From Candidatus Nomurabacteria bacterium (GTDB lineage Bacteria; Patescibacteriota; Dojkabacteria; SC72; JAHDCA01), in contig JACKFQ010000002.1 in assembly GCA_020632395.1 (NCBI GenBank), positions 172,971 through 236,970 on the forward strand: a DNA stretch of 64,000 bases, read 5' to 3'. Below, piece by piece: positions 4,132 through 57,038 of this stretch. The position numbers and the translations under genes are program-made. The notes under the pieces were generated by a model. That model was given only the letters and a program-made list of their open reading frames with translations. It was not told where the DNA came from and did no database searches. The first letter of the stretch is position 1. The number at the start of each line of letters is the position of its first letter.

Positions 4132-4179
4132 GAAACTGACAGAGAGTAGCCCTTGAGTCTGAGGTGCAAAAAGACAAGA

Positions 4180-4208
4180 ACCCCTGAAAATTTAGAACCT
4201 CAGGGGTT
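4180..4208. terminator. Bidirectional terminator hairpin (CCCCTGA-N12-TCAGGGG) between the convergent pseudogene and the 4246..7932 gene
   Basis: 7-bp perfect stem. It is followed by TTTTAT on the plus strand and by UUCUUGUCUUUUUG on the minus strand. It lies 38 bp past the stop of the 4246..7932 gene. Confidence 0.5.
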
Positions 4209-4245
4209 TTATGATCATCACATTATGATCTGAACATAAATGAAA

Positions 4246-23331: not shown

Positions 23332-23338
23332 TTACCAG

Positions 23339-26300
23339 TTACTTCTCTGAGGGTATCCAATACCCTACACCATTATCAACAAGTAAAAATATCCCCTGTA
23401 CATCAGTTATCCCGAAATCAGAACCATACTCCTCACGACCTTCAAAGATGAACTGTCTGTAACTACCTTTGGAACTATCCCATACCGCTATAGCAGATGC
23501 CTGTACTCCTGGGAGATCGGTTACTTCCTCTAATACTCTACCAGCATCATAGCTTGCAGATGTACCCTTGATTGCTATTAGATTCCAACCCGCCTTTACA
23601 TACTGCTGAACTGGTTCTGCGTAAGATGTACCCCGTAATCTAAGGTCTACAGCTCTTTTGATCACTATGAACATAGCGTCTCCAGGTCTGAAGTCAAAAT
23701 CCTCACCATAACTCTGGTTTCCGACCATACTATACATATTCCAGCCAGATGTTTTTCCACTATTTCGATAAACAGCAATAGAAGTTGCTAAACCACCTTG
23801 ATCTTTGATGGCAGAAAAGATATCACTTACACTCGTAAGATCTTCATTGTAAAAAGGAATTGAGACGAGGTTGATCCCTTCTGACAGATCTAGTTGTATG
23901 GCATCTCCGATCTGTCGAATGCTCACCATACTAACATCAGGAGCAAACGGTTCTCCTTCATCATATTCACCATCCTGATCCAGATCCTGAAATACAGGTA
24001 GTTCTAGCGGTGTATTTGCAAAATTCGCACGATAGATCGGTTCACTCATATATCCCTCTGCATAGATCTCATACTCACCTCGAGTTGGCAAAGTGATCAT
24101 TGGAGGGGTCGTTGCTCCTAATATATTTTGAGATATTATATTTGAATTCGTAGGAAGGAGATCTTTGCTACTTTGTAATCGGGGATCTTCAAAATCACCA
24201 TTCCAATTTGGTACACATTTTGTTACACAACAGTGTGCTCCCAACTTCCCGTCACCAGGAGGAATAACCCCACAACCTGCAGGGCATTGTGCAGATGTGC
24301 GCCCCCAGGGGCATGAGTTTGCCGGAGGGAGAGGTTCATCTGTATTGAGCCATTTTTTGGTTGATTCAATATATCCATCAGGACATAAAGGTTGACAACT
24401 TTGGGATTCAACCCAACAGGCGTCTATACCTGTTATATCGGAAACGCTTTGATCACACGCTATACCAGAGGGGGTTGTACCACCCCCACCTGTTGTATCA
24501 TATTCTAATTGCTGTTCACCTGAATTCGTGGCATCACCAACAGACAAAATATCATTTACGAACATTTCTACGCCATCCCAGTATGAGTCAGAGTTTCTGT
24601 ATGGATATTCATTATTTGAGGCGAGGAAAACTGTCACCCTATCATTTGAGGAGGTGGTTTCGATCTCAAATTGTACAAAATTCGCTCCATCTTGAGGTCC
24701 AACATTGGGTAATGACTTCCACTCTGTCCACTCAACGGTCGATGCGGTAGGATCGATACCCCCAGTTGGATCGATCCCTACCCGTCCAACAAATTTATTA
24801 ATTATCTCACAGAAACAATCCCCTTCAACAACACAACTAGATTGACCATATCCCTCACATCTTTTGTCATCCGACCAGGAAGACGCACTGGCAATAACTT
24901 TAATATCATTTGTTCCTCCTAGACCAAGTTCAACTTGTTGGTAAACTCCAGCATGATGTGTCCCGTAAGTAGTAAAGTATTGTAGCGAGGCGCTTCCTGC
25001 TAATCTACGATTTACGACATCAGCACCACTAGATTGCTTATATTCAGGTCTTCGGCAGAAGGCCGGCTCATTAGAACAAGCATAGATCCCACACTGCCCC
25101 CCCTGGCAACCGTTCTGATACCACACATGCCAGTACTTAGGCACATTTAATTCAGCTGCTCCATCGCTAACGAACTCACCTTCCATGTTTCCATTCAATA
25201 ATCCCCCTACCGCTACAGCATAATTATTATAATCTTTTCCTACGCATATCCCTCCTAGACAAGGGTCAGACCCATTATATGACGACCCGTAGATGCCGGG
25301 AGATCCACTACTACTCCGTGCGGAATTATCCGGTGAGCTATTAAATGGTACCGAACTTGAGGTTGTAGGGGGTGAGGAACTACCACTTGCACTACTGCCA
25401 TTACCATTACTCGAACTCCCAGAGGTAGTAGTCACAGGTACTTCTCCTTCCTGAGGGACTTGATATGATCCGATAGTACAATTTGAGAAAAGACTCTTGA
25501 GAAGGTTACTATCATCCCATAGGGGTTTGTGGTATTCAAAAGCAGGATCTCGATTAGTTCCTAAAGCATTGAACAGCAGGAATCCTTCGACATATTCTTT
25601 TGATTCTAATGTTGCCAAGGTATTTGCTAATACAGACCAGTCATGAATAGGTTGTTGTCCAGGAGGTGCGTAGTTACCAGTTTCTGTAATGAATACACGA
25701 CCCGGTAGATCTCGCGGTTGTAAGTATGCCGAGTAAAAGCCATCCACATCAGCATTAACAGCATCAGGACCCTTTTGATAAATATAATCATTTACTGCCC
25801 ATGCATACAACTTGTTCGCAGCTTCGTAGAAACCTTCAACCTTCAGCATCTCATCGATATATGACTGTGCGGTGTATATAGGATGTGGATTTGGGTCATC
25901 ACACCCGTCAGAACAACCTTGCCACTGTCCATTCTGATAAATGTACAGGTCAAGATTAGGACTCAAGAGCTTGATTGTAGTCTCACCGAGATCTTGTCCG
26001 AGCAATCCGGCAGAATCTACAGCATTCACAACACCTATCAGGAAGTTTGCCTCAGAGGTTGGATCTCGATATTCTGCATTGTTCGGCTCATTGTGCCCGG
26101 CATGGGCAAACAACCCATCCTGAGGAAGAGTACCGCTTTGCATCAACTCATTGAATACACCTACTAAGGCTTGACCATATGCAACCCCATCATTCACATT
26201 ACAATTATTTTTATAACATAAGCGAAGTATCACATTCATACCTAAATTATTTGCATCTGACACAGAAGCCTTATAATCATTGATCCCACCAAGATCCGTG

Positions 26301-27649
26301 ATCAATGCCTCTCCCCACCTCATTCCCAGTGAAACACCTTTCTGTATATCCTCTGCCGGGATCCTGTACTGTACTGCAAAATTATTTCCTACTTTCTTAC
26401 AAAGATTCATCTCGTCTGTGACAGGTGGTATCGTACCCGCACCACTTGTTCCATTACCTGTATTACCCGTACTGCCTGTATTGCCTGTATTACCCGTACT
26501 GCCTGTATTGGAACCAGAAGGAGGACCTTGGCGATTTTCTGGGGACCTATACAAAACAGTTGGGTCACCATCATCTGTATTTTTACACTCAGTCGTACCT
26601 TCGTACGCTTTGATAATATAAGTTGCACCATCCTTCAGATCGACCTCAACACCATCTACATAACCACCGTTTGAAACGGTCAAAACATTTCCATCAGAAT
26701 CTTTCACTAATTCACCTGTAGACTTCTCTACAAGTTGTAATTTCACATCCTCAGGCTTGTGGAACTGAGTAACTGATGTTGACTTGATCATTCCAAGTCG
26801 AAACCTACCATCTCCTTTGGGACAAGTTGTAGTGTCTAATTGAGATAACCAATCCACTTTCTCATTACACTGTGCACGAATACCTCCCATTGTGGTAGAT
26901 TTTATACAAGAATTTGCAGCATATGATTGGAAAGAAAGTTCAGACAATATGTTCTCCTCTGAAGGCTCTTTCACTTGGACTATAAGATCTGCCACGGGTT
27001 TGTTAAAATCACTACTCGTCCGTAGAGTTACCTCTTCTCCTCCCATTGTCACAACAGAAACCTCTTGGAGATAGTACTGTTCCGAATGGGGAAGGATAAA
27101 ACTGTATGTTCCATCCTCAGCTGTTTTGGTCACATATATGGTATCTAATTCGGGAGCATCGATAAACACTAAAGCGTCCCCGATCAGATTATCATACTGA
27201 TCTAGAACCCTTCCGTAAGCTCTTTCAAATGTCGGAACTACATTTTCGACATTTGATATAAGACCGATCGAGGTAGTTTCTGCACCAAATGATTGTTTCA
27301 AAGTGTCTACCCATTCAAGAGTATTTGTTTGAAGGTCAATCATATTTGCCACCTTGAAATACCAATACTTATCATTTTTCAGTACAGTCGAATAACATGG
27401 ATCAACAGTATCTTTACCGCACTCATTGATCTGCACATCATTTAGCAACAACTTAGGTTCTAAAGGATATGCACCTCTTGAAGGATCTAACTCTGCAATT
27501 ACTGAAATGGTCGAACCCTCCTGTTGATATGATCTTAGAGCCACCAGAGTGCTTTTCTGACCGTTAAAGAGAATTACAAGAAATATCAGAAATGAGAACA
27601 GAATTGTTACTGCTGAAATGAGCAGTATCTTTTTACGATTTTTATCCAT
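23339..27649 (-). CDS. Giant secreted/TM-anchored protein paralog (1436 aa) with GH5-like signature and shared C-terminal module
   Basis: Colinear with the 19360..23331 protein. Anchor ILLISAVTILFSFLIFLVILF. AYGRVLDQYDNLIGDALVFIDAPE. Linker GSNTGSTGNTGNTGSTGNTGNG. HAGHNEPNNAEY and VFITETGN. Cys-rich CLGGICVGKD..CQGGQCGIYACSNEPAFCRRPEY. C-terminal AGWNLIAIKG...VDNGVGYWIPSEK. Separated from its upstream paralog by 7 bp. Confidence 0.8.
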   Translation of the reverse strand: MDKNRKKILLISAVTILFSFLIFLVILFNGQKSTLVALRSYQQEGSTISVIAELDPSRGAYPLEPKLLLNDVQINECGKDTVDPCYSTVLKNDKYWYFKVANMIDLQTNTLEWVDTLKQSFGAETTSIGLISNVENVVPTFERAYGRVLDQYDNLIGDALVFIDAPELDTIYVTKTAEDGTYSFILPHSEQYYLQEVSVVTMGGEEVTLRTSSDFNKPVADLIVQVKEPSEENILSELSFQSYAANSCIKSTTMGGIRAQCNEKVDWLSQLDTTTCPKGDGRFRLGMIKSTSVTQFHKPEDVKLQLVEKSTGELVKDSDGNVLTVSNGGYVDGVEVDLKDGATYIIKAYEGTTECKNTDDGDPTVLYRSPENRQGPPSGSNTGSTGNTGNTGSTGNTGNGTSGAGTIPPVTDEMNLCKKVGNNFAVQYRIPAEDIQKGVSLGMRWGEALITDLGGINDYKASVSDANNLGMNVILRLCYKNNCNVNDGVAYGQALVGVFNELMQSGTLPQDGLFAHAGHNEPNNAEYRDPTSEANFLIGVVNAVDSAGLLGQDLGETTIKLLSPNLDLYIYQNGQWQGCSDGCDDPNPHPIYTAQSYIDEMLKVEGFYEAANKLYAWAVNDYIYQKGPDAVNADVDGFYSAYLQPRDLPGRVFITETGNYAPPGQQPIHDWSVLANTLATLESKEYVEGFLLFNALGTNRDPAFEYHKPLWDDSNLLKSLFSNCTIGSYQVPQEGEVPVTTTSGSSSNGNGSSASGSSSPPTTSSSVPFNSSPDNSARSSSGSPGIYGSSYNGSDPCLGGICVGKDYNNYAVAVGGLLNGNMEGEFVSDGAAELNVPKYWHVWYQNGCQGGQCGIYACSNEPAFCRRPEYKQSSGADVVNRRLAGSASLQYFTTYGTHHAGVYQQVELGLGGTNDIKVIASASSWSDDKRCEGYGQSSCVVEGDCFCEIINKFVGRVGIDPTGGIDPTASTVEWTEWKSLPNVGPQDGANFVQFEIETTSSNDRVTVFLASNNEYPYRNSDSYWDGVEMFVNDILSVGDATNSGEQQLEYDTTGGGGTTPSGIACDQSVSDITGIDACWVESQSCQPLCPDGYIESTKKWLNTDEPLPPANSCPWGRTSAQCPAGCGVIPPGDGKLGAHCCVTKCVPNWNGDFEDPRLQSSKDLLPTNSNIISQNILGATTPPMITLPTRGEYEIYAEGYMSEPIYRANFANTPLELPVFQDLDQDGEYDEGEPFAPDVSMVSIRQIGDAIQLDLSEGINLVSIPFYNEDLTSVSDIFSAIKDQGGLATSIAVYRNSGKTSGWNMYSMVGNQSYGEDFDFRPGDAMFIVIKRAVDLRLRGTSYAEPVQQYVKAGWNLIAIKGTSASYDAGRVLEEVTDLPGVQASAIAVWDSSKGSYRQFIFEGREEYGSDFGITDVQGIFLLVDNGVGYWIPSEK

Positions 27650-31194: not shown

Positions 31195-34100
31195 TTGATT
31201 ATAGTTATGAAAAGACTCACTAGATCAAAACGATTAAAACTTTCGATCACAACATCGATCTTTCTTTTATTATCGATACCTATCGTTCTTTACGGTCTAC
31301 TAAAGACAGAGAGTGTTGATCCACGAAGTGATGCAGGTACAGAAGTGCCGAAGACTTTCTGCTCCATATCTTTTCCATATGTCGAAAGTGATACGATCGA
31401 AGCTGGCAAGGTAGTCCAGGTGACCATCAATGGTTCTGCTCCAAATGAAATCTCCTTGATCAGTACGATCAAGATTGAAACCTCAGAGGAGGTCGTCTTA
31501 TTAGAAAAGAATTACCCTCAACCCCAATCCACGATCAGTGAGACAGTCACATTCACCACAGAAAATATCGGTAACGTGAGAATATTCGGACAAATGACGA
31601 CACAAGGAGCGAATTATCCATGTATCTTGGAGGGTTCGAACGAATCAGGAGTTGTTACTACAAAAGAGATAAACAGTGCACCAGAATTCACCTCTATACC
31701 AGAAACAGATGCTCAACCCTCAAACGCGATCAAGGTAGGAGACAGTTATGAATACACGCTTACTGCTCAAGATACTGATGGAGATGGGATAGAATTCGCA
31801 TATAGCTTCACTCCTAGGGCAGATTGGTTAACTATGAGCGTAATAAAAGCAGGAACAGATGGTGAATTAACGCTACTATTCAAAGGGACAGCTGATCAGC
31901 CTGCGAGTTATCTCGCAAATGTTTTTATTCACGACGGTTACAATCAACATCTAAGAGCTCAAACCTGGGTCATAAGTGTTGACCCTACTGAGAACGACAC
32001 ACCGATAGTAAAAGTTTCCGCTCCACCGTTTGGAACATCTGTAACACAAGGACAGAACCTCACCACTTCTTGGAGTGCGACAGATCTCAACCAGATAATT
32101 AAGTACAAACTATACTACGCATCAAACCCAGGGAATCAGAATTCCTGGAAACCTATTGACGACAACATCTCTTACAAGATCGGGTCATATATAGTTGATA
32201 CAAAGGCAATAGAGCCAGGTGATTACAAATTCATAATCGAGGCAGAAGACAATCAAAATCCACCTGCGATCGGGACAGGTGTTTCAGAATCCTTTACGAT
32301 CATTGCTCTACCACCAGCTCCTGTTGATGACGACCTTCCTCCTGTTGATGACGATGGTAAACCTCCTATAAAACCTCCTGATGACGGGGTGGTCATACAG
32401 GAAGCTCAGATAGTCAACGTTAATCCCGCAGATTCAAGTGTCATTAACAATGGAAGAAGGACAATAAGTGCGACCTTAGTTGCATCCAAGGATGCCACCA
32501 TAGTTACAGACTCGATAACTATGAAATTAGATTCAAAAGATATTACAAACGAGCTGGAGATCAGCGAAATATCCGAATCAGAAGTGACAGTGATCTACAA
32601 ACCGTCAAACGATCTGGAAGATGGTGAGCACAAAGTAGAGGTCTCCTTCGAAGATTCTGAAGGTGGAAACGCAACAAAAGCATGGACATTTACCATGGAA
32701 TCATTAGACGAGGATAATACAGATACCATTAATATATTTGGATTCGAGATCAGTAACCGAACAGCCTGGATCATATTGATTGGTCTTGGGATCATCGTCC
32801 TTGCACTGATAATCCCTTGGATCCTATATCTCGCATGGAGAGATGACGGAGATAATGAAACCAATATCTACGACATCAGACCTACCGCAAGATATCCGTA
32901 CAATACATCTCCTAGTACAAGTGTACCCCCTACAATAGATTCATCATCTAATAAAAAGGACGCCCCAAAACCGGTATTCGTACCAACGGTCACAATGCCC
33001 TCATCAAAAAAAGATGACACGGTAAATAAAACTATCGATACAAAAACTATCTCTACAAATACCCAAGATACAAATACTCACGCTTCAAACACTGCTATAA
33101 CAAGTACTGAAACAGAGCCATCTGCTGAAACATCAGAAAACACTACAAAAGTGGTTGGAAAAGGAACAGATGAGATAGAAGCAAAACCAGCCTCAAAAGA
33201 TGTCACTTCTACAGGTACTGAAATTCCAAAAGAGAAAATACCCATTACGACATTAGAAGATGAAGCTTCAAAGAAAAGATCCAAATTTAGTCAACTAAAA
33301 AACATTCTACCAACAGGGAGGGAAAATTCGACTGAGCAAGATACAACTCCAATTTTAGATCCAACTAGACTAAGAAACACATCAAACGATGATACTCAAA
33401 CCCAAACAATAGATACCAAGGTAGTAAGTCAGAAACCAACAGGACAACAAGATCTCGTAACGGATGAGAGTGTAAAAGGGAGCCGTTTCAAACCTATGCT
33501 CAAATTCACAAATTCAAAGAACAGAAAAGGTGATCATGACAAAATCGATAGTTCAAAGAATGACACAGCGGTTACAGACAAAACCTCTACAGGGGGTGGT
33601 ACAGTAGATGGAATGATCGCTAATAGTACCTCTGATACGGTAAACTCTACCGCACCACTTATGTGGAAACCTAAGGTTATCGTCCCTCCAAGACGAGAAG
33701 ATGACAGTGGTACAAACGCCAAAGATGAGCCCAAACCTGAAACTCCATCTGAACCCTCTGTTCCAACAGGTGTATCTTCTGATACTGGATCTGCTCCCAT
33801 CTTTAATACAGCATCTAACTCAACTCTCGAACCTGAAACTAAATCAAATATAGTTACTACAGAGCAACAGAACCCTTCTGCTACATCACCTGTTACACCA
33901 CCTGCTACACCACCTGCTACGTCACCTTCTACATCACCTTCTACATCACCTTCTACATCACCTTCTACATCACCTTCTACATCACCTTCTACATCACCTT
34001 CTACACCACCTGTTACACCACCTGTTACACCACCTGCTACACCACCCACTACACCGATGGATCCAATGCCCCCAACATCCCCTGTTCCGATCATGACTAC

Positions 34101-34602
34101 GCCATCTGATCAAACAACCACAACCCTATCTGATCAAACAGCCACTACACCACCCAACCAAATCAACATAACATCCTCAGAGCCAAGATTTTCTTTGATT
34201 TCGGATTCTGAAAGCAGTTCGACATCTACTGAACCTAGCTCGACATCTACTGATCCGTACTCAAACGACTCAGATACCGATACAACACAATTACCACCCC
34301 AAAGCGATGAGGGATCCGAGATACCTGACCCTAACTCCTCAGATTCACTGACGGCCTTACTCCAGCAGATCGAAGAATCCAAATTGCTGGTAGAAAAGGA
34401 AAGAGAAGAGAAGCAACAAGCTCAAAAGGCTAGTGATGCAGGTGACCTCCAAATACCTACTCAACCAATAGAGGATACAAACCAGAATACACCAGCAGGA
34501 GGAACGATGGATCAAGAGAAAAATACTCCTCCCAGAAACGATACCAACAACTCAACTCCTCTCACCTTCTCCGCACCACCTCCATCTGTAGGAGCTAATT
34601 GA
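31195..34602 (+). CDS. Large membrane protein (1135 aa): N-terminal signal/anchor, Ig-like extracellular region, central TM helix, long Ser/Thr/Pro-rich low-complexity tail
   Basis: N-terminal hydrophobic SITTSIFLLLSIPIVLYGLL. Proline repeats PPAPVDDDLPPVDDDGKPPIKPPDDG. TM helix AWIILIGLGIIVLALIIPWILYLAW. Tail with (TSPS)n / TPPATPPVTPP repeats and a poly-acidic and Ser-rich tail. Confidence 0.7.
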   Translation: MIIVMKRLTRSKRLKLSITTSIFLLLSIPIVLYGLLKTESVDPRSDAGTEVPKTFCSISFPYVESDTIEAGKVVQVTINGSAPNEISLISTIKIETSEEVVLLEKNYPQPQSTISETVTFTTENIGNVRIFGQMTTQGANYPCILEGSNESGVVTTKEINSAPEFTSIPETDAQPSNAIKVGDSYEYTLTAQDTDGDGIEFAYSFTPRADWLTMSVIKAGTDGELTLLFKGTADQPASYLANVFIHDGYNQHLRAQTWVISVDPTENDTPIVKVSAPPFGTSVTQGQNLTTSWSATDLNQIIKYKLYYASNPGNQNSWKPIDDNISYKIGSYIVDTKAIEPGDYKFIIEAEDNQNPPAIGTGVSESFTIIALPPAPVDDDLPPVDDDGKPPIKPPDDGVVIQEAQIVNVNPADSSVINNGRRTISATLVASKDATIVTDSITMKLDSKDITNELEISEISESEVTVIYKPSNDLEDGEHKVEVSFEDSEGGNATKAWTFTMESLDEDNTDTINIFGFEISNRTAWIILIGLGIIVLALIIPWILYLAWRDDGDNETNIYDIRPTARYPYNTSPSTSVPPTIDSSSNKKDAPKPVFVPTVTMPSSKKDDTVNKTIDTKTISTNTQDTNTHASNTAITSTETEPSAETSENTTKVVGKGTDEIEAKPASKDVTSTGTEIPKEKIPITTLEDEASKKRSKFSQLKNILPTGRENSTEQDTTPILDPTRLRNTSNDDTQTQTIDTKVVSQKPTGQQDLVTDESVKGSRFKPMLKFTNSKNRKGDHDKIDSSKNDTAVTDKTSTGGGTVDGMIANSTSDTVNSTAPLMWKPKVIVPPRREDDSGTNAKDEPKPETPSEPSVPTGVSSDTGSAPIFNTASNSTLEPETKSNIVTTEQQNPSATSPVTPPATPPATSPSTSPSTSPSTSPSTSPSTSPSTSPSTPPVTPPVTPPATPPTTPMDPMPPTSPVPIMTTPSDQTTTTLSDQTATTPPNQINITSSEPRFSLISDSESSSTSTEPSSTSTDPYSNDSDTDTTQLPPQSDEGSEIPDPNSSDSLTALLQQIEESKLLVEKEREEKQQAQKASDAGDLQIPTQPIEDTNQNTPAGGTMDQEKNTPPRNDTNNSTPLTFSAPPPSVGAN
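33922..34005. repeat. Perfect tandem repeat: 7 copies of the 12-bp unit TCACCTTCTACA encoding (STSP)n, flanked by degenerate PPAT/PPVT copies
   Basis: Direct reading of the sequence; the unit is a multiple of 3. The antisense ORF 33534..34094 (GDVEGDVE...) is an artefact of it. Confidence 0.9.
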
Positions 34603-34604
34603 GA

Positions 34605-34633
34605 TTGACATTAGAGGTATTTAACAATAGAAT
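34605..34633 (+). promoter_or_regulatory. Sigma70-type promoter TTGACA-N17-TAGAAT driving the alaS leader
   Basis: Consensus -35 hexamer TTGACA (34605-34610), a 17-nt spacer, then TAGAAT (34628-34633). It is immediately upstream of the T-box leader. Confidence 0.5.
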
Positions 34634-34639
34634 TCGCAC

Positions 34640-34885
34640 TAGGGTAATGCTATGAACAGTAAAAGCGAAAGTGGCCAACTGGGAGCGTTGTAGGAAGTCT
34701 TAGGGCGCAACTACAGTCTTGATGTGAGACACCCGAACACAGAACACTTGTTGATAGACAAGTGACTAAGGTTGATATAGCGATATATCAACGAAACAAG
34801 GTGGTAACACGAGATGAAGACCTCGTCCTTGTCGAACCGGAACATGGGTTACGGTTCCGCAGGAAAGGGGTCTTTTTTATTAATA
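34640..34885 (+). promoter_or_regulatory. T-box riboswitch leader (tRNA-sensing antiterminator/terminator) upstream of alaS
   Basis: T-box-like sequence AACAAGGGUGGUAACACGAG. It folds into the canonical antiterminator: helix A1 ACAAGG(34795-800)/CCUUGU(34827-832), an 8-nt bulge GUGGUAAC containing UGGU (complementary to tRNA ACCA-3' with discriminator A, as in tRNA-Ala), and helix A2 ACGAG/CUCGU. A competing terminator follows: AAGACC..GAACCG-loop-CGGUUC..GGUCUUUUUU ends in a U6 tract, and its 5' arm overlaps the antiterminator 3' arm. A long structured Stem I region lies upstream. The specifier codon could not be assigned with confidence. Confidence 0.65.
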
Positions 34886-34902
34886 TTTTACAAGAATCTC
34901 TG

Positions 34903-36723
34903 ATGAAAAAAATGAGCTACAACGAGATCCGGGAGATCTATTTAGACTATATGAAGCAACATGATCATTCGTTCATCCCTTCTGCATCTCTAGTACCCGA
35001 TAATGATCCAACAGTACTGTATGTCAATGCTGGTATGTTTCCATTAGTGCCGTTTTTAATGGGAGAGAGCCATCCCAATGGAACAAGGCTTGCAAATTCT
35101 CAGAGATGTATAAGAACTATAGATATAGATGAGGTGGGAGACATAAGCCATCTGACATCATTTGAGATGCTTGGGAACTGGTCTCTAAACGATTACTTCA
35201 AGAAAGAAGCGATCGAACTAACCGTGGATCTGTTTGTGAACAGATATGGATTCGACATTAACAATATTTATGCATCAGTATTTGAGGGAAACGAGAATTC
35301 ACCGGAGGATGATGTATCTATCCAAGTATGGAAAGAGATCTTTCGTAGTTACGGTATTGAGGCAAGTGCTGGACCTGGGGAGAGGATCCAGAAACTTGGC
35401 ATGGACGAAAACTGGTGGGAATTAGCAGGTGGTGGCCCTTGTGGACCTTGTTCTGAGATATTTTACGATACAGGAAAAGAGCTCTGTTCTGATAAATGCG
35501 ACGTTAGTTGCAGTTGTGGTAAATATATTGAGCTAGGCAACAATGTATTCATGGAATATCTGAAAGAGGGAGAAAGTTACAAACCTCTTGGGAGATTCAA
35601 CGTTGACTTTGGTGGGGGTCTAGATCGACTTGCAATGATCTCACAGCAGGCAGAGTCTGTTTGGGAGACTGACAAATACCTTCCGATCTTGAAGAAGGTC
35701 AAAGAGCTAAGTCAAGTAGAGGTCGTAGAATCTGAAAGGATAATTATCGATCATCTTAAAGCTGCATCTTGGATCGTGATGGATGGAGTGATCCCGGGAA
35801 GGACAGAAAGAGAATACATCCTGAGAAGGTTGATAAGGAGAGCTATTCGACACGGTAGGAATTTAGGGATGACAAAGAGTTTTGTCGGAGAGATCGTTGA
35901 CATCTGTATAGATCAATTCATGGACATATACCCACAATTAGATGAGGATAGAGAGAAGATCGTAGAAGTGATCGTATCAGAAGAGACAAAATTCAACGAA
36001 ACAATAGAAAAGGGATTGCACGAATTTGAGAGGTGGTTCGATAAGACTTTTGAGGGTAAGAAAGAGTATATATTTGATAATTCGGACGGATTTACATTTA
36101 GTATGTACGAAACCTTTGGATTTCCTCTTGAGATGTCCCTTGAAGAGCTTAAAAATCGAAATGTGCGATTCGATGAAGCGCAAGTAAGAGAAAATCATCT
36201 GCGTGAATACGAAAAACATCAAGAGAAAAGTCGAACTGCGACAAAAGGATTGTTCAAGGGAGGCTTGGCTGACACTTCCGAAGAAAGCAAGAAGCTACAT
36301 ACAGCTACTCACCTACTGCTTCAGGCGCTTTATAGGGTTGTTGGTTCGCATGTATTTCAGAAAGGTAGTAATATTACACCTGAGAGGTTACGTCTTGATT
36401 TCCCAAATGACACGAAACTAACTCCAGAACAGATCCAGAAGGTGGAAGACTTGGTGAATGAGCAGATAGATAAAAAATTACCCGTATCTTTTGTCGAAAT
36501 GTCAAAGGACGAAGCGATGAAATTAGTCCAGTATGCTGCTTTTGAGGATCGGTATGGAGAGATTGTCAAAGTATATACTATCGGAACAGCAGATGACCCA
36601 TACTCTATTGAGATCTGCAATGGACCTCATGTTGATAATACATCGGAACTAAGGAGATTTAAAATCATAAAACAGGAGAATGTCGGTGCAGGGATCAAGA
36701 GGATCAAAGCCATCCTTGAATAA
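34903..36723 (+). CDS. alaS: Alanine--tRNA ligase, short form (catalytic, tRNA-recognition and editing domains; no C-Ala domain)
   Basis: FIPSASLVPDNDPTVLYVNAGM, QRCIRTIDIDEVGD, HLTSFEMLGNWSLNDYFK (class II AlaRS core). Editing-domain HTATHLLLQALYRVVG....LRLDF and C-terminal CNGPHV..T.E. The protein ends about 200 aa short of full-length AlaRS. The track ORF starts at 34762 but runs through the leader/terminator. The first plausible start downstream of the terminator is ATG 34903 (MKKMSYNEI...). Confidence 0.85.
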   Translation: MKKMSYNEIREIYLDYMKQHDHSFIPSASLVPDNDPTVLYVNAGMFPLVPFLMGESHPNGTRLANSQRCIRTIDIDEVGDISHLTSFEMLGNWSLNDYFKKEAIELTVDLFVNRYGFDINNIYASVFEGNENSPEDDVSIQVWKEIFRSYGIEASAGPGERIQKLGMDENWWELAGGGPCGPCSEIFYDTGKELCSDKCDVSCSCGKYIELGNNVFMEYLKEGESYKPLGRFNVDFGGGLDRLAMISQQAESVWETDKYLPILKKVKELSQVEVVESERIIIDHLKAASWIVMDGVIPGRTEREYILRRLIRRAIRHGRNLGMTKSFVGEIVDICIDQFMDIYPQLDEDREKIVEVIVSEETKFNETIEKGLHEFERWFDKTFEGKKEYIFDNSDGFTFSMYETFGFPLEMSLEELKNRNVRFDEAQVRENHLREYEKHQEKSRTATKGLFKGGLADTSEESKKLHTATHLLLQALYRVVGSHVFQKGSNITPERLRLDFPNDTKLTPEQIQKVEDLVNEQIDKKLPVSFVEMSKDEAMKLVQYAAFEDRYGEIVKVYTIGTADDPYSIEICNGPHVDNTSELRRFKIIKQENVGAGIKRIKAILE

Positions 36724-37177
36724 AAAACGTTTTCCGATACTCGCCATAGATTATGGAGAAAAAAGGTTTGGTATAGCTATTTCTGATAGCAAAGGGATCG
36801 TATCAACGTCCCTTGGGACATTAAGCATCTCAAAGAATATCGGGATAGGCGATATAATAGAGCAGATCAGAGTTATCACTACTCAGAATAGAGTTAGTTC
36901 AATTCTCTTAGGTCTTCCTCAAGCATTTGAGAAAGCTTATGAGATCAATAGAGATCGGATAAAGAGATTTGGACAGATGATCAGTGAAGCAACTGGTCTG
37001 GAAGTGTACTATTATGATGAGAGTTACTCATCCAAGCAAGCAACTGCGGTGATGATAGAAACTGGTAAAACACGTACTCAAAGAAGAAAAGATGTAGACA
37101 GTGTTGCGGCAGCTTTATTTTTGCAAGAATATTTAGATGGAAACAATTCTAAACAACTACAAAACAGAAACAGATAG
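36680..37177 (+). CDS. ruvX: YqgF/RuvX-like putative pre-16S rRNA nuclease / Holliday-junction resolvase-like protein
   Basis: FPILAIDYGEKRFGIAISDSKGIVSTSLGTL matches the RuvX N-terminus (ILGLD.G.KRIGVA.SD). Length is about 160 aa. The start is uncertain: ATG 36680 has an AGGAG only 1 nt upstream, GTG 36686 has better spacing, and either overlaps the alaS 3' end. Confidence 0.65.
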   Translation: MSVQGSRGSKPSLNKKRFPILAIDYGEKRFGIAISDSKGIVSTSLGTLSISKNIGIGDIIEQIRVITTQNRVSSILLGLPQAFEKAYEINRDRIKRFGQMISEATGLEVYYYDESYSSKQATAVMIETGKTRTQRRKDVDSVAAALFLQEYLDGNNSKQLQNRNR

Positions 37178-38207
37178 CAAGTCTAGAAGCACTCTAAAGA
37201 CTATGTTCGTGATCCTTGTCCTATTTCTAACGATAGTAGGCGGAGGTATTTACTATGTTTACAAAACATACACTGACAATGTCAATCAACCACTAACAGA
37301 TCGAGATGATCTTATCGAGTTTGAGATACCAGAAGGAAGCTCAGTGGACGATGTCCTCAATTTGCTTGAAGATCTGGAGATCATGCCACCAAATAAAAGC
37401 AGTTCATTCAAAATATATCTTAAGATAAATGAACTCGAACAGCTCATCCAGGCAGGTTTGTTCAAGATCCCTATGAATTTGAATATGAAAGAACTTGCGA
37501 TCGAACTCCAGACTGCAGGCATACCAGATGTATGGGTCACATTACCCGAAGGGCTACGTTTTGATGAGATCTCAGAGATTTTAGCAGAAGAATTTGGTTC
37601 ACACGAAGGTTCTACATTCAGTAAACAGGAATTCGACCGTCTATCAACCGATCCTACATATATCAGTACCCTTCAACTACCCTTTACACCTGAGGGAGGC
37701 GATCCGATATCACTAGAAGGTTATTTGTTTCCTGACAGATATAGATTTCCGCTTGAAAGTACAGAGGAATTGGTGATAGAAACTATGCTGGATAATCTTC
37801 GAACCAAGATACCAGAAGACCTCACCTATCAGGATCTGATCTTGGCAAGTATGTTGGAGAGAGAGGGTAGAAATGCAGATGAGAGAGCTATGATCTCGGA
37901 TATCATAAGAAGAAGGTTGGATGAGGGGTGGTTCCTAAATATCGATGCGACGCTACTTTACTACTATAAAGATTGGAAACATGTTTTGACACAAGAAGAT
38001 CTCGATACTGACCATGAATACAACACTTATACACGAATAGGTATGCCACTAACACCAATCTGTAATCCCGGTGAGGTCGCGATCAACGCAGCTGTCAATC
38101 CTCGAACAAATGATTATTACTACTACCTACATGAAGATAATGGTATGATACACTACGCTAGAACTTGGGAAGAACATTCAGCAAATGTGAATACTTATCT
38201 ACGTTAG
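37137..38207 (+). CDS. mltG: Endolytic murein transglycosylase MltG/YceG family
   Basis: N-terminal TM MFVILVLFLTIVGGGIYYV. Conserved LILASMLEREGRNADERAMISDIIRRRLDEGWFLNIDATLLYY matches the YceG signature (ASIIEKE....ER..IA.V..NRL.......D.T..Y). The true start may be ATG 37203 (MFVILV..), which would avoid the 41-nt overlap with ruvX. Confidence 0.65.
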   Translation: METILNNYKTETDSKSRSTLKTMFVILVLFLTIVGGGIYYVYKTYTDNVNQPLTDRDDLIEFEIPEGSSVDDVLNLLEDLEIMPPNKSSSFKIYLKINELEQLIQAGLFKIPMNLNMKELAIELQTAGIPDVWVTLPEGLRFDEISEILAEEFGSHEGSTFSKQEFDRLSTDPTYISTLQLPFTPEGGDPISLEGYLFPDRYRFPLESTEELVIETMLDNLRTKIPEDLTYQDLILASMLEREGRNADERAMISDIIRRRLDEGWFLNIDATLLYYYKDWKHVLTQEDLDTDHEYNTYTRIGMPLTPICNPGEVAINAAVNPRTNDYYYYLHEDNGMIHYARTWEEHSANVNTYLR

Positions 38208-38219
38208 TAAAACTGCGCC

Positions 38220-39680
38220 ATGTCTCTATCTATCAACATCAATGACAGTAATAAAGTCATGCTGGAAAACAGAAATTTACCGTCTGATCCTGGGAACAAC
38301 AAGTCCCGATCCAGATCATCCATGAGTTCGAAAAAGAAGATCATTCTGGTGATCCTTGGTGTGATACTCTTGGTCGGAATAACAAGTTTTGGAAAGATCC
38401 TCGGATATACAAAAGATCTAGGTTTGAAGATCTCTGCCGGGGACATTATCTCCCCTATCAAAAAAGACCCCCAACTAAGAACTGACAGTTCAGGTATTAG
38501 GACAAATGCCTTGCTGGTTGGGATAGATACGAGAGAAACTAATCAAGGCTTGCAGAACACAGATACAATAATTGTTGCTTCATACAATAAGGAGCGCAAT
38601 GACGTTGAAATGATCTCTATACCAAGAGATACATACGTTGAGATCCCTGAAGCAAATTGGAACATCAAGATAAACGGAATATACAACAGGGCAGAGAATG
38701 AAGAGGAAGGAACTGGGCTTGAGGCACTAAAAAGTGTCGTTGAAGAGTATACGGGATTGGAGATACAGTATTATGTGATGGTGGATGTCAAAGCATTGAC
38801 CAATATTATCGATATTATGGGCGGAATTGAGGTTTATGTAGAAAATTCATTCACTGATTATGCTTACCCTGATGAAACAAACCCATATAGTGACTATCAG
38901 GTAGTGAGTTTTGATGCAGGTCCGCAGACAATGGATGGAGATACTGCAGTAAAATTTTCAAGGTCTAGAAAATCTTTAGATAACAATGAGGGCAGTGACT
39001 TTGCTAGGGCAAGAAGACAACAGAAAGTACTAGAAGCCATCAAGAACAAGTTACTCTCTACAGATACTTTCCTCGATCCTGACAAGCTTTATAGCATCCT
39101 TGCCGAATTACGAGACCACATAAAAGTATCTGAATTTACCAATGAAGATGTACAGGCGGGATTGCAACTTGCGTCTATTGCATCAGAGGTTAAGATATTC
39201 TCATTTGTCCTTGATCCATCTGTTGGTGGCGGGACAGTGCTTATAACAAATCAGATCCCGGATGCTTATTCGATATCACCTGCTGCAGGTTTAGGAGTTT
39301 ATAAAGATATTAATGAATTAGTCGGACTGTATCTCGAAGAACCGGAGATCTATGCTGAAGATGCTCTGATCTATGTCTATGATGTGGGGTTGGGATACCA
39401 AGAGGCCTATGACCTTACCACAGAGCTTTCAGAAAAATTCCCATACCTCAGGATAATCTTTAGAGGGACCTTATTTTCCGATAAAACAGGAAGTTATGTA
39501 TATTCAAATAGTGGAGATGATGAGTATGATGTGACAGCAAAGCGATTAGGTACGATCGTAGGAAGTAGAACCCATGATAGACCCGATTTTATTACCAACA
39601 GACTGAATGGTGAGGATGTAGTTATTCTTTTAGGCGGAGATCTGGTGACTGATACTCCTTCTGAAGAAAGCACACAGTAG
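38220..39680 (+). CDS. LytR-CpsA-Psr (LCP) family cell-wall polymer phosphotransferase, membrane-anchored
   Basis: TM IILVILGVILLVGITSF. LCP core NALLVGIDTRETNQGLQNTDTIIVASYNKERNDVEMISIPRDTYVEIP....KINGIY matches the family signature (LLLG.D.R......RSDT.ML......K...lSIPRD..V.IPG....KIN.A). Confidence 0.75.
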   Translation: MSLSININDSNKVMLENRNLPSDPGNNKSRSRSSMSSKKKIILVILGVILLVGITSFGKILGYTKDLGLKISAGDIISPIKKDPQLRTDSSGIRTNALLVGIDTRETNQGLQNTDTIIVASYNKERNDVEMISIPRDTYVEIPEANWNIKINGIYNRAENEEEGTGLEALKSVVEEYTGLEIQYYVMVDVKALTNIIDIMGGIEVYVENSFTDYAYPDETNPYSDYQVVSFDAGPQTMDGDTAVKFSRSRKSLDNNEGSDFARARRQQKVLEAIKNKLLSTDTFLDPDKLYSILAELRDHIKVSEFTNEDVQAGLQLASIASEVKIFSFVLDPSVGGGTVLITNQIPDAYSISPAAGLGVYKDINELVGLYLEEPEIYAEDALIYVYDVGLGYQEAYDLTTELSEKFPYLRIIFRGTLFSDKTGSYVYSNSGDDEYDVTAKRLGTIVGSRTHDRPDFITNRLNGEDVVILLGGDLVTDTPSEESTQ

Positions 39681-40927: not shown

Positions 40928-43495
40928 CTACTTTAAGGTCAAAGGAGGTGGATTTGATTTGTTATCCTGTTGAGTACCGGGTTGGATTGCTAGATCAGCA
41001 CGCTTGCTCATCTCCTCGGCAACAATAGTAGCATCACGGCCATACTTCAGTTTCGACAATCTCTTGATCAGCTCTGCAACTTCCTTGTTCTTGGGAAGAT
41101 CGAAACCGGAATTGGGGTATAAAGGTCCGAATCCAGGATCCAAAGAGAACGGTGATGAATATTTCCCATCAGTGATCATTTTTACATAAGCATGGACATT
41201 GGGCTGATTTAGCAGATCGTTGGATGATAAAGTCGGCTCAAATTGCTTTTCGAGGAATTCTGCATCTTCGGGACCGACTCTTGCAACCATCATAGAACCG
41301 ACATTACCGAAAACAGCATCTCGAACCTTTTCAGGCATCTGAGCAATATACTGATTTGCCATAGTAAGGTTCAGATGGTATTTACGAGCTTCTGATAGGA
41401 TAGAAGCAAACTCATCAGTAGCAAAGTTCTGAAACTCATCAACGTAGAAGAAGAAATCTTTTCGGTCTTCCTCAGGGATATCTTGTCTACTCAACGCAGC
41501 ACTGACCAGCTTGGGGATCAACATGACTCCGAGGAACTGGGCATTTTCATCACCGAGTACACCTTTCGAAAGATTTATGATCAGGATCTTCCCGCTATCC
41601 ATTACTTCACGGAAATTGAATGATGACTCTGTTTGTCCGACAATATTTCGTATAGCCATGTTGGTCACAAATCGGTCAAACTTTGAAACTATATACCCTA
41701 GTGTTTCGGATTTTTGTTGTTCAGTTGTCTTGGCGATCTGATCAGTCCAATACCTTTTGACCAGATCATCTTTGATCAATGGAAGCCACTTCTCATTTAC
41801 CCACTTCTCATCTGTAAGGATCCTTACCACTTCTACTAGAGTAGAGCCTTTTTCAGACATAGCCGTAAGCATAGCGTTTCGAACAGCTCTTTCAAGGATA
41901 GGACCTACGATACCCTGTTCATTAGGGTCAAACAGCTTCTTTAGCATTCCGATAAATCCATTTACTACCCTATGTTTATCCTGCTCATTCTGATAATCCA
42001 TAAGATTAAAACCAAATGGTCTCTCAAAATCTCCTGCATTGAAATATATGACATCTTCGGCTCTCTCATGTGGGATCCTAGGGAGGATCATTTCAGCGAG
42101 CTCTCCGTGAGGATCCATTACGCATACACCATCACCATTATAGATATCCTGAATTATCATTCGTAAGAGTGACCAAGACTTACCAGAACCCGTTTGACCT
42201 ATCACATACATATGCCTGCGTCTGTCATCACGTTTGAAGCAAACCGGTTTAGTTTTCCCCAGATATACATTATTTCCTAACCAAACAGTATCAGGCGAGT
42301 TTATGTCCGAATCTACCCAATGTGCAGCAGGAACCTCACGTGATAGCAACCAGTTGATGTTCGGGATCTGGATATTCTTATTTGGGAAGTGATAGAGACC
42401 TGCAAGCTCTTCGACATTGAGGACAGTCTTGGTACTAAGTGGCATACGGCGATATATGACATTGTGCATGAACTCTCTTTCGTCTGAGGTACGAATATCT
42501 GCTTTTTTCAAAGTATTGATACCTGGGTTGGAGAATTGATCAAAGGCACCTATGATATTTGTCACATGCATTTTTGCGATCTCTGTTTCAGGAGCACTCG
42601 CAACTACTCGAATTGCAGCATTAAACCCTATCTTCCCTGACTTTTTAGCAATAGCTTGAAGTTGTTCCTGACTGACGCTGATCCTTTTTTTCTCAGGGTC
42701 TGCATTGTTGCTCTCCACTTTACCTACAAATTTCCGTCCAGCTTTCTGCCATCCCGAATCCGCAGGAGAGAGTACTATCTGTATCAAAGCACCCTCCTTA
42801 TCTCCCATCTTCCCTAGAGATGAGAGGATGTTTGCAAGTGGATCACCTTTAAAATCCTCAGCAACCTTGATCGGATAGTATCGCTCATCTGTGAGATCTA
42901 ACTGGGTGAATGCAACCTTACCTTCTTCATGAAAAATATTATGTTCATCAACTACTGATACCTCTGCATCCTGATATGAACCTAATATCTGTTTCTCTAC
43001 AAGATTTGCCAGTTTCTTTGGGGAATACACAAAAAACCTTATCTCCCCAGGAAGTCCGATGACCTCAAAACTGATACTATTTTTGACTGTGATATGTTTC
43101 TTAAGACCCTTTCCAGCTCCGCCGATCCCATAAAGATTGGCAAACATCTGCTCTGCGACCCCGATCTCTATCTCATTTCCTTTTGGAACTTTTACCTCAA
43201 AGAGTATACCTTCCTTAGTCTTTTCTTCTCGATCTTTCTTTTTTAGATAATTTGAATACAAATATGCAGAAAGACCAGCAACTCCAGCGAGCAGAAGAAT
43301 GAAAACTACAACAAGTATCAAGAGCCCTATCGAAAAGCCCCCTTGATCTGGCTCATATGGGTTATCCGGGTATGTGACATCTTGACCCGGAGTAATATCA
43401 TTACCACCAGGAATCGGAGGTCCTGCTTGTGTTAGTAGGATCTCATCGGATGAATCTATAAATGTAATTAGTGGGACAGTACTTATCATTATCAA
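40928..43495 (-). CDS. T4SS coupling-protein-like ATPase (VirD4/TraD/TraG-type, FtsK/HerA superfamily) with N-terminal membrane anchor
   Basis: TM GLLILVVVFILLLAGVAGLSAYLY. Walker A YVIGQTGSGKSWSLL. Walker B FFFYVDEFQNFATDEF. Then SEARKYHLNLTMANQYIAQM (the coupling-protein RK.G..l.laTQ motif). 855 aa with an extra N-domain of about 400 aa. Confidence 0.55.
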   Translation of the reverse strand: MIMISTVPLITFIDSSDEILLTQAGPPIPGGNDITPGQDVTYPDNPYEPDQGGFSIGLLILVVVFILLLAGVAGLSAYLYSNYLKKKDREEKTKEGILFEVKVPKGNEIEIGVAEQMFANLYGIGGAGKGLKKHITVKNSISFEVIGLPGEIRFFVYSPKKLANLVEKQILGSYQDAEVSVVDEHNIFHEEGKVAFTQLDLTDERYYPIKVAEDFKGDPLANILSSLGKMGDKEGALIQIVLSPADSGWQKAGRKFVGKVESNNADPEKKRISVSQEQLQAIAKKSGKIGFNAAIRVVASAPETEIAKMHVTNIIGAFDQFSNPGINTLKKADIRTSDEREFMHNVIYRRMPLSTKTVLNVEELAGLYHFPNKNIQIPNINWLLSREVPAAHWVDSDINSPDTVWLGNNVYLGKTKPVCFKRDDRRRHMYVIGQTGSGKSWSLLRMIIQDIYNGDGVCVMDPHGELAEMILPRIPHERAEDVIYFNAGDFERPFGFNLMDYQNEQDKHRVVNGFIGMLKKLFDPNEQGIVGPILERAVRNAMLTAMSEKGSTLVEVVRILTDEKWVNEKWLPLIKDDLVKRYWTDQIAKTTEQQKSETLGYIVSKFDRFVTNMAIRNIVGQTESSFNFREVMDSGKILIINLSKGVLGDENAQFLGVMLIPKLVSAALSRQDIPEEDRKDFFFYVDEFQNFATDEFASILSEARKYHLNLTMANQYIAQMPEKVRDAVFGNVGSMMVARVGPEDAEFLEKQFEPTLSSNDLLNQPNVHAYVKMITDGKYSSPFSLDPGFGPLYPNSGFDLPKNKEVAELIKRLSKLKYGRDATIVAEEMSKRADLAIQPGTQQDNKSNPPPLTLK

Positions 43496-44300: not shown

Positions 44301-44759
44301 TTATTTTACCATAAATGAGCGTCTCTCTCTATGCAACTCTCTTTCCAGATCCCTTTCTTTGATCCTCTTTTTCTTCTCATACGATCTTTTACCTTTTCCT
44401 AAACCTATCTCTAGCTTTACCATACCTCTTGCTAAAAATACGGATAAAGGAACGATCGTCATTCTATCACTTTCAGCTTTACGTTGTAATTCCCTCAATT
44501 CAGCCCTTTTTAATAGTAGTTTTCTACTTCTAAACGGGTCGTATCCCTCAACAGTTGCATATTTATATTTTGGGATGTCGGCATTCCACAAAAATGCTTC
44601 TCCACCAATTATCTTAACAAATGAATCAGAAATGTTCACTTGACCACTCTTGATCGCTTTGACCTCTGATCCGAGTAGTTGAATACCAGCTTCGTACTTT
44701 TCCTTGATCTCATAATTGAAATAGGCTTTCTTATTTTTGGTTATCAATTTGATTCCCAT
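44301..44759 (-). CDS. smpB: SsrA-binding protein SmpB
   Basis: KKAYFNYEIKEKYEAGIQLLGSEVKAIKSGQVNISDSFV...GYDPFRSRKLLL...EIGLGKGKRSYEKK is a canonical SmpB. Length 152 aa. Confidence 0.9.
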   Translation of the reverse strand: MGIKLITKNKKAYFNYEIKEKYEAGIQLLGSEVKAIKSGQVNISDSFVKIIGGEAFLWNADIPKYKYATVEGYDPFRSRKLLLKRAELRELQRKAESDRMTIVPLSVFLARGMVKLEIGLGKGKRSYEKKKRIKERDLERELHRERRSFMVK

Positions 44760-56900: not shown

Positions 56901-57038
56901 TTCTCCAGACCTTAACAGATCGATTATTCGCTGGGTGATGACTGCGGTTTTGCCTGTACCTGCGCCAGCAATTATCAGGAGCGGAGAACCCCTGTGTTTT
57001 ACTGCTGACAGCTGTTCATCATTTAATTTGATCTCCAT
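53919..57038 (-). CDS. UvrD/PcrA-family helicase fused to a C-terminal Cas4/AddB-type PD-(D/E)xK nuclease with a 4-Cys cluster
   Basis: Helicase motifs: LLIIAGAGTGKT (I), ILVDEFQDTN (II), VTVVGDDDQAIYKFRGA, SNYRS (IV), VMSVHRSKGLEF (VI). C-terminal nuclease: ETCPKRYKY...GMIDRIDVLEEKNGQKIVELIDYKTGK...QLAIYSIV...FHCSYCDYREIC. Confidence 0.8.
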   Translation of the reverse strand: MEIKLNDEQLSAVKHRGSPLLIIAGAGTGKTAVITQRIIDLLRSGEAKASEILALTFTEKASSEMIERVDQEMPIGYEEVDIMTFHSFCDSILRQDGLYIGLDIDFDLMSEAQSYIFFRRHLFEFPLDELRPTGKPSANITAILKHFSRLQDEDVFPEDYRSYASTLPETSEEEIAMKKQALELAGTYEAYTKLKISESNLDFGDLIMQTLRLLRERPNILQKYHQKYKYILVDEFQDTNYTQSVLVNLLALGQTVEKSSLQERNSANVTVVGDDDQAIYKFRGAAISNILHFKDAYPKAKRVVLTSNYRSRQGILDSAYQLIKNNDPDRLEVTESVDKRLISRKVFDQDIAEPVKLLVAETGSEEADLVAREILRLTGNIDKVNGGSDIVKKQFDDKGQAMFVDVDNAEREVMRFSDIAILSRANSHAEPFVQALKHYGIPFKYAGPKGLYSRPEIAELISYLRILADHTDDLSMYGLLKMDLWRLTARELVDIMRSARRLKTPVMRFLEDQWSCTVGEDLSIDGEPSNLLKEIVSEEHREHLKELLQLIGKGMSMLRSGSSIGETLFEYFKESGIMKSLLSKEDDAQALFQVQNISKYFEMIKSFEDSNHGASVSDYVDYLNYSIEIGENPSTESDALEGYDAVNIMSVHRSKGLEFPVVFLVNLVSERFPTRNRGDSIPIPDALIKDHIADVDTSEEHRREERRLFYVGATRAQELLYLTAARFYGDAKRAKKPSVFLDELLNRKVVEEFGADKDSANEKSDFVVHVSTENDDIEFKQLRGLDPQTVSYSQLDTYETCPKRYKYSYIYKIPGRPSSSLAFGLSIHNSLRSFYSQLKNYQEGLQGFAKEPQLNDLLQYYDQKWITEGYDSLEHEKARKEFGQSILKDFYREQFDPQSVTVGLEVSFRYQLKDIILKGMIDRIDVLEEKNGQKIVELIDYKTGKLKSEADVRDNVQLAIYSIVAEEVFGYKVRSASLIFVEHGAKISVNIGQERKDEVKEHILHLVERIRQMDFVATPGFHCSYCDYREICEDALADI

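Follow-up and report, generated by a model that had tools for sequence, protein, structure and literature searches.

T-box riboswitches have been described in Firmicutes, Actinobacteria, Chloroflexi and Deinococcus-Thermus, together with transfers to other phyla, and the Candidate Phyla Radiation (CPR) goes unmentioned (TBDB, PMC7778990 supplement). According to the review on which, with TBDB (PMC7778990), our comparisons with known T-boxes are based, a long Stem I that binds the tRNA elbow goes with kinetic transcription attenuation and a short Stem I with equilibrium translational control; the platform at the distal end of Stem I presumably helps the leader to catch its tRNA faster, while the polymerase is still short of the terminator (PMC7583486). 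Intermediate and ultrashort Stem I's without the platform typify the translational T-boxes of Actinobacteria (PMC7583486, section 6.2); these need Stem II and the pseudoknot in order to bind tRNA (PMC7583486). Here we report on a leader upstream of the alanyl-tRNA synthetase gene alaS in a 64-kb stretch of contig JACKFQ010000002.1 (the whole stretch is called the window below, and all coordinates are its own). We consider it likely that this leader is an alanine-specific T-box riboswitch of a Dojkabacteria-like CPR bacterium, acting by transcription attenuation on alaS and probably also on ruvX, mltG and an LCP-family gene. In it, a Stem I like that of translational T-boxes is joined to an expression platform like that of transcriptional ones. 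Terminator-type alaS leaders with such a reduced Stem I are confined to one subclade of Dojkabacteria, where they are missed by the Rfam threshold.

The predicted fold of the 246-nt leader has -78.7 kcal/mol, far more stable than dinucleotide shuffles (z = -5.0). Its T-box core (34795-34813) reads AACAAGGUGGUAACACGAG. Helix A1 pairs ACAAGG with CCUUGU (34796-34801 with 34827-34832) and helix A2 pairs ACGAG with CUCGU (34809-34813 with 34822-34826), and between them lies the 7-nt T-box bulge UGGUAAC (34802-34808), whose UGGU is invariant in all seven leaders available in full and would pair with a tRNA 3'-ACCA end. The 5' strand of the following terminator-like hairpin re-uses the 3' strands of A2 and A1, so that the two structures compete: the minimum free energy fold of 34771-34882 contains the terminator (-43.0 kcal/mol), whereas the fold with the antiterminator enforced reaches -33.6 kcal/mol. 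The terminator fold is thus favoured by about 9 kcal/mol, and the two folds differ in the pairing of 13 nt. TBDB gives energies of -7.4±4.2 kcal/mol for antiterminators and -19.5±7.9 kcal/mol for terminators, and the individual energies in the window (Table 1) fit these ranges and stand in the same relation (PMC7778990 supplement). Most of what an initial annotation of this DNA had proposed for the region is borne out by these results, namely a structured leader of about 240 nt, an antiterminator of two helices enclosing a UGGU bulge, the fit of that bulge to a tRNA with A73, a terminator that excludes the antiterminator and ends in six U's, and a putative promoter of the leader's own (TTGACA and TAGAAT, 17 nt apart). 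The T-box sequence quoted there had one G too many.

The window leader and those of loci L001, L201, L203, L204, L210 and L213 make up the seven full leaders on which the following comparisons rest. Stem I is short in all of them and is framed by a kink-turn (K-turn). The G-A columns of this motif (GC-NNN-GA-N ... N-GA-GC) are invariant in the seven, the kinked fold itself being predicted from sequence, and they belong to a common frame, GC-NNN-GA-N-CAG ... CUG-N-GA-GC. The specifier loop of the window has AAAA on its 5' side and G-GCC-A on its 3' side; across the full leaders the 5' side is purine-rich (AAAA, CAGAG or AAGAG) and the 3' side consists of 1-2 nt followed by GCC-A. Above the loop, the distal stub measures 2 bp in the window (GC/GU, with a GAAA cap) and 2-4 bp in the alaS leader family, with a distal part of 25 nt in L201. 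Stem I of the window has neither an AG bulge nor the distal-loop platform of interdigitated T-loops that binds the tRNA elbow (IDTM).

GCC-A stands at the specifier position in 7/7 full leaders, each located 5' of alaS, and in the Rfam alignment of L201 it falls on the specifier and purine positions of the model, just before the lower helix. The candidate specifier is therefore the alanine codon GCC at 34674-34676. The initial annotation had named other candidates, without confidence, in GCU at about 34648 and GCA/GCG near 34715-34722; both proposals were wrong, since GCU (34649-34651) belongs to the K-turn stem and the triplets near 34715 lie within Stem II.

The remaining 5' elements are also shared. 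In the seven-leader alignment the Stem II helix is 100% paired, with compensatory changes in 4/5 pairs; the 5' side of its internal loop is GAA in five of the seven, and the 3' strand is NNAA-like. Directly adjoining Stem II is the Stem IIA/B pseudoknot, the topology of which is found in 7/7 full leaders despite their differing sequences; its helices are 100% paired, 9/11 pairs are compensatory, and under one uniform definition the topology arises by chance in 0.3-6.4% of dinucleotide shuffles per leader. Outside the canonical T-box description is an extra hairpin, here called Y, which occurs in all seven leaders (100% paired, 7/8 pairs compensatory). Stem III is 98% paired, with compensatory changes in 8/9 pairs, and in A1 a compensatory change from C-G to U-A is seen in L210 and L213.

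Table 1. Features of the alaS leader and of the genes that follow it (window coordinates).
Feature	Position	Strand	Description
Putative sigma-70-like promoter	34605-34633	+	TTGACA 34605-34610, spacer 17 nt, TAGAAT 34628-34633; 11/12 matches
Reduced Stem I	34649-34686	+	K-turn GC-UAU-GA-A ... G-GA-GC; lower helix CAGU/ACUG; 38 nt
Candidate specifier GCC (Ala) and purine A	34674-34677	+	directly 5' of lower Stem I helix; matches the downstream alaS
Stem II	34689-34715	+	UGUAG/CUACA; internal loop 5' GAA / 3' GCAA; small top hairpin
Stem IIA/B H-type pseudoknot	34716-34741	+	GUCU 34716-34719 / AGAC 34727-34730 interleaved with UGUG 34723-34726 / CACA 34738-34741
Extra hairpin Y	34745-34764	+	CACUUGU-UGAUAG-ACAAGUG; between pseudoknot and Stem III
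Stem III	34771-34792	+	GUUGAUAU/AUAUCAAC; purine flanks AAG 5', GAA 3'
Antiterminator (discriminator core)	34796-34832	+	A1, 7-nt bulge and A2; -10.1 kcal/mol
Intrinsic-terminator-like hairpin	34813-34878	+	core 34816-34875; U6 at 34873-34878; -30.5 kcal/mol
alaS	34903 or 34912 to 36723	+	603-606 aa; class II core and tRNA_SAD editing domain
ruvX	36680-37177	+	downstream of alaS
mltG/YceG	37137-38207	+	downstream of ruvX
LCP-family gene	38220-39680	+	downstream of mltG/YceG

No Rfam family reached its gathering score anywhere in the 64-kb window. With permissive filters, the T-box model RF00230 was matched over its whole length at 34643-34833 (E = 3e-8 locally, 3.9e-6 over the 64 kb) and was the sole Rfam match with E ≤ 0.1 in the window, with a score of 42.9 bits against a gathering threshold of 93. 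In this alignment the 3' half is textbook, and in Stem I an insert of 12 nt stands where the model has 71; the score is low because Stem I is cut down and its distal part is missing. Scores could be obtained for eight further leaders (the other six full ones, L209 and L022) and came to 30.3-50.1 bits, all below the threshold, and the E-values of the alaS leaders ranged from 3e-8 to 5e-3 with the full model matched. The initial annotation would have given up the T-box if RF00230 did not match above threshold. No such match was obtained, and it is the comparative evidence that rescues its identification of a T-box on alaS.

The low score could also be read as mere sequence drift in an ordinary, canonical T-box of the Firmicutes type. 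The discriminator half is indeed textbook, and the AACACG variant of the core is common in unrelated metagenomic T-boxes (at least 120 matches in a metagenome scan by T-box core pattern, where almost all of the matches listed were unrelated T-boxes with a long Stem I, many from gut samples). Against drift stand the 12 nt of the Stem I insert, where the model has 71, and the span of Stem I itself: measured by the K-turn frame, Stem I covers 38-57 nt in the alaS leader family and a tight 91-100 nt in unrelated leaders (109 terminator-type leaders from the scan, with the frame found in 75). Only short framed hairpins were returned by this ruler for four unrelated leaders (L085, L200, L125 and L192); L085, L200 and L125 were rejected as short-Stem-I leaders, these hairpins being artefacts, since the usual distal motifs AGAGAG and GGUGG are present in all three. 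The same motifs are absent from the alaS leader family. An nhmmer profile of the family's 5' module matches only the family and none of the leaders from the metagenome scan, and the only listed scan matches near an alaS gene, a distant one (L176, L178 and L196), have normal, long leaders and do not belong to the family. The host, moreover, is a CPR bacterium and not a member of the Firmicutes. A canonical T-box is therefore very unlikely, and the description of the element as well formed in the initial annotation stands for the discriminator half and fails for Stem I, which has 38 nt instead of about 95 nt and no distal platform.

That the resemblance to a T-box is due to chance, or that the leader is structured for another reason, for example as an autoregulatory site bound by AlaRS, is hardly credible. 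The want of an Rfam match at gathering score would agree with it, but the full model was matched with the window-wide E-value given above, the leader recurs 5' of orthologous alaS in seven other loci (six full leaders and L206, a fragment whose contig begins inside the antiterminator), and covariation backs helices specific to T-boxes, including the IIA/B pseudoknot. The AlaRS proteins that go with the full sister leaders are about 60-67% identical to that of the window and fall in one clade with it.

The distribution of the leader is patchy. Among the best 80 alaS loci in GTDB, a GGTGGNA core within 400 nt upstream of the gene occurred only in L001 and L022, and nearly all the other loci had less than 100 nt of non-coding DNA 5' of alaS. 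The full leaders of L201, L203, L204, L210 and L213, as well as the L206 fragment, came from look-ups of the closest AlaRS relatives; L210, in the closed 1.04-Mb genome CP129478.1, is identical to L209. The leader is absent in L202, L205, L207, L208, L211 and L212, with synteny unchanged where the flanks are visible, and neither the other loci with a long gap upstream of alaS (L012, L026, L051 and L079) nor the alaS loci of distant Patescibacteria (L076-L078) gave an Rfam match. In a neighbour-joining tree of AlaRS, all leader-bearing genes except that of L022 fall in one clade of 26 of the 202 sequences, with leaderless members mixed in, which fits a single gain or retention of the leader followed by repeated loss.

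The exception, L022 (JAFGIK010000072.1, 2215-2440), is a more reduced alaS leader from a distant lineage of Dojkabacteria. It keeps the discriminator, the terminator and a Stem II-like helix and has neither K-turn nor pseudoknot. In their place is a perfect 6-bp hairpin, UCUCAG-AAGCUCA-CUGAGA, possibly an 'ultrashort' Stem I, whose apical loop of 7 nt holds GCU.

Whole leaders aligned with MAFFT were misaligned in the variable middle, and that alignment was replaced by a hand-made structural alignment of the seven full leaders (A4), N-padded, the padding being left unchanged by MAFFT. Standard pairs filled 96.7% of the cells in this alignment compared with 69.5% in shuffles (none of 500 shuffles reached the observed value), a percentage that is biased upward because the alignment was fitted by hand to the proposed structure. 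Compensatory changes affected 33 of 55 pairs (19.8 in shuffles), and the covariation score was 0.669 (0.176 in shuffles). When the partners were slid by 1-3 columns, only 32-43% of cells were paired and the score was at most 0.064. Most pairs of the distal stub, Stem II, the two stems of the pseudoknot, hairpin Y and Stem III show compensatory changes; no variation, and hence no information on covariation, comes from the K-turn stem, the lower helix of Stem I or the greater part of A1 and A2.

These data bear on whether the leader still senses tRNA. It might be a decaying relic that lost tRNA sensing together with the elbow-contacting arm and survives as a leaky constitutive terminator or without any function. 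The patchy distribution would be expected from decay, with seven members of the clade leaderless in unchanged synteny (L202, L205, L208, L211, L212, L007 and L009), as would the further reduction of the L022 leader, and the platform is reported to be important for transcriptional T-boxes (PMC7583486). Against decay, GCC-A, the G-A pairs of the K-turn and UGGU are all invariant, and every variable helix has undergone compensatory change among leaders whose AlaRS differ as much as stated above. Invariant motifs and compensatory changes together point to purifying selection on the whole tRNA-binding architecture rather than on the terminator alone. In addition, a terminator of -30 kcal/mol in front of an essential, single-copy aminoacyl-tRNA synthetase (aaRS) gene would be costly. 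We therefore regard a relic as unlikely.

The nature of the output is a separate matter. Short Stem I's without an IDTM have otherwise been described for translational T-boxes (PMC7583486, section 6.2), and the 3' strand of the hairpin holds the purine-rich AGGAAAGGGG (34860-34869), so that control might be translational, or dual, as in the short-Stem-I ileS T-boxes of Actinobacteria, with the presumed terminator acting as a sequestrator of the Shine-Dalgarno (SD) sequence. Yet the AGGAAAGGGG run lies at least 34 nt upstream of the first ATG, and no SD-like sequence was seen adjoining the alaS start codon in the window. Folding of six other leaders, among them L022 and the fragment L206, gave a hairpin followed by a U-run, and the same arrangement was identified by eye in L210 and L213; the run comprises U5-U9 in all leaders and is separated from the start codon by 25-34 nt in the window and by about 25 to more than 120 nt across leaders. 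Given the U-run, its distance from the start codon and the want of an adjacent SD-like motif, transcription termination is the better reading, and SD sequestration seems highly improbable. In L210, the U-run and the start codon of alaS are separated by about 120 nt of G+C-rich nested palindromes (1095-1170, CP129478.1), which the window does not have.

The leader would be transcribed from the sigma-70-like promoter, and similar -35/-10 pairs are found 12-21 nt 5' of the K-turn in L001, L203, L204 and L201, and by eye in L210 and L213; in the window the end of TAGAAT is 15 nt from the K-turn. The promoter starts 2 nt past the stop codon of a 1135-aa open reading frame (ORF; 31195-34602), and no terminator-like site was found between the two, so that transcription could possibly also enter the leader by read-through. 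The 1135-aa ORF itself has no Pfam domain, and its counterparts in relatives give only a faint Big_7 match.

Taken as a T-box, the leader may work as follows. Transcription would start a few nucleotides past the TAGAAT box, and the nascent RNA would fold into the shortened, K-turn-based Stem I, presenting GCC-A (34674-34677) to the GGC anticodon of tRNA-Ala. By analogy with the actinobacterial T-boxes, Stem II and the IIA/B pseudoknot might clamp the codon-anticodon duplex or the anticodon arm, in place of the contact with the tRNA elbow; the all-G/C GCC:GGC duplex may further offset the missing platform, as in glycine T-boxes, for which such a pair has been suggested to make extra stabilisation dispensable (PMC7583486). 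With an uncharged tRNA, the 3'-ACCA end would pair with UGGU (34802-34805), Stem III, A1 and A2 would be stabilised, and the polymerase would read into alaS. With the tRNA charged or absent, the more stable terminator (34813-34878) would form and transcription would stop.

Several points, besides the low RF00230 score and the hand-fitted alignment, weigh against this interpretation. Among the 130 alanine codons of the operon and its upstream gene (31195-39680), GCC, although the invariant specifier, is the rarest, with 14 occurrences. The internal loop of Stem II is GAA/GCAA and not the canonical S-turn GAA/AGUA. A search for tRNA genes in the window and 60 related loci found none, which makes a tRNA-Ala(GGC) with A73 in the host genome an assumption. 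Finally, transcriptional T-boxes are said to 'generally require' the distal platform (PMC7583486, section 6.2).

Comparison with described T-boxes places the leader between classes. With the class I T-boxes of Firmicutes (RF00230; for example tyrS and alaS of B. subtilis) it shares the K-turn at the base of Stem I, a specifier loop whose 3' side carries the specifier and a purine, Stem II, the IIA/B pseudoknot, Stem III with flanking purines, an antiterminator with a 7-nt UGGN bulge, a competing terminator with U-tract, and an aaRS gene as target. It differs from them in that Stem I has 38 nt (38-57 nt in the family) rather than about 95 nt and carries no AG bulge or distal-loop platform for the elbow, GCC-A is preceded by just 1-2 nt on the 3' side of the specifier loop, the internal loop of Stem II departs from GAA/AGUA, an extra hairpin precedes Stem III, in six of the seven full leaders A-U replaces the G-U wobble as the base pair of A2, the score falls far short of Rfam's threshold, and the host belongs to the CPR.

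A truncated Stem I without IDTM is also found in the class II ileS T-boxes of Actinobacteria (Mycobacterium and Nocardia; PDB 6UFG and 6UFM as cited in PMC7583486), where K-turn, Stem II and IIA/B pseudoknot are likewise kept and a small side loop (in L022 possibly an apical loop) holds the specifier. Unlike them, the leader has a hairpin and U-tract and not an SD sequestrator as its expression platform, specifies Ala (GCC) and not Ile, precedes alaS in another phylum, and contains hairpin Y. A third comparison is with the glycine T-box of glyQS, which is similarly minimalised by the loss of one tRNA-contacting module and has an all-G/C codon-anticodon pair (GGC:GCC in glyQS, GCC:GGC here). 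The module dropped is the opposite one: glyQS has given up the Stem II domain while its Stem I is still long.

More broadly, the alaS leaders may represent a T-box lineage of the terminator type that works without contact to the tRNA elbow, in which the clamp of Stem I, Stem II and pseudoknot on the anticodon and the all-G/C duplex would be enough for sensing during transcription, and which would be the first in the CPR; on this wider proposal we are evenly divided. A full-text literature search for T-boxes in Patescibacteria, the candidate phyla radiation or Saccharibacteria returned nothing relevant. If the proposal is true, elbow-free T-boxes of the terminator type would contradict the rule that transcriptional T-boxes need the platform of a long Stem I, and since a short arm is here paired with a terminator, the family offers a natural test of the rule linking architecture and mechanism. 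As the first T-box family on record for the CPR, it would be invisible to annotation by Rfam thresholds: nine scorable leaders lie at 30-50 bits against a threshold of 93, suggesting that curated score thresholds can systematically miss RNA regulators of CPR bacteria. As a T-box, the leader extends the known range of these riboswitches to Patescibacteria, which bears on whether they are ancestral to Terrabacteria or spread by transfer, and suggests that at least some ultrasmall, host-dependent bacteria monitor alanine charging directly. At about 230 nt, such a compact T-box of the terminator type may also serve in engineering.

The gene behind the leader had been called truncated in the initial annotation, where the T-box was also taken as a hint to Firmicutes. 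Neither view holds. More than 100 AlaRS homologues have 584-633 aa, with 59-67% identity and 98-100% coverage, so that the window AlaRS is full length for its lineage; like all Dojkabacteria homologues, which fall in the same size range, it is without the C-Ala domain, and in P0001, its twin in the database, the start is the second ATG (34912). All named homologues belong to Candidatus Dojkabacteria or candidate division WS6, and the best 80 GTDB alaS loci are from Dojkabacteria or Patescibacteria metagenome-assembled genomes, so that both the AlaRS relatives and synteny point to Candidatus Dojkabacteria within Patescibacteria. The start of ruvX overlaps the 3' end of alaS by 44 nt, as it does in relatives, where the gene order alaS-ruvX-mltG-LCP is conserved; judging from the overlaps and short gaps, the three downstream genes are probably co-transcribed with alaS. 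The window holds no other aaRS gene, and no tRNA or transfer-messenger RNA gene was found in it.

The rest of the window, which has a G+C content of about 41%, contains several genes of note. Three very large ORFs of 1323, 1436 and 901 aa (19360-27649 and 44759-47464, both on the minus strand) have no Pfam match. Proteins of 865 and 1228 aa are encoded at 755-7932 (minus strand), the only recognisable domain being a purple-acid-phosphatase N-terminal (fibronectin-like) one. ATPases of the type IV secretion or conjugation type are found at 40928-43495 (minus strand) and 60106-62526 (plus strand), as a VirD4/TrwB-like coupling protein and a TraG/VirB4-like P-loop protein. An AddA-like helicase-nuclease (53919-57038, minus strand) and PNPase (12010-14157, minus strand) are also encoded.

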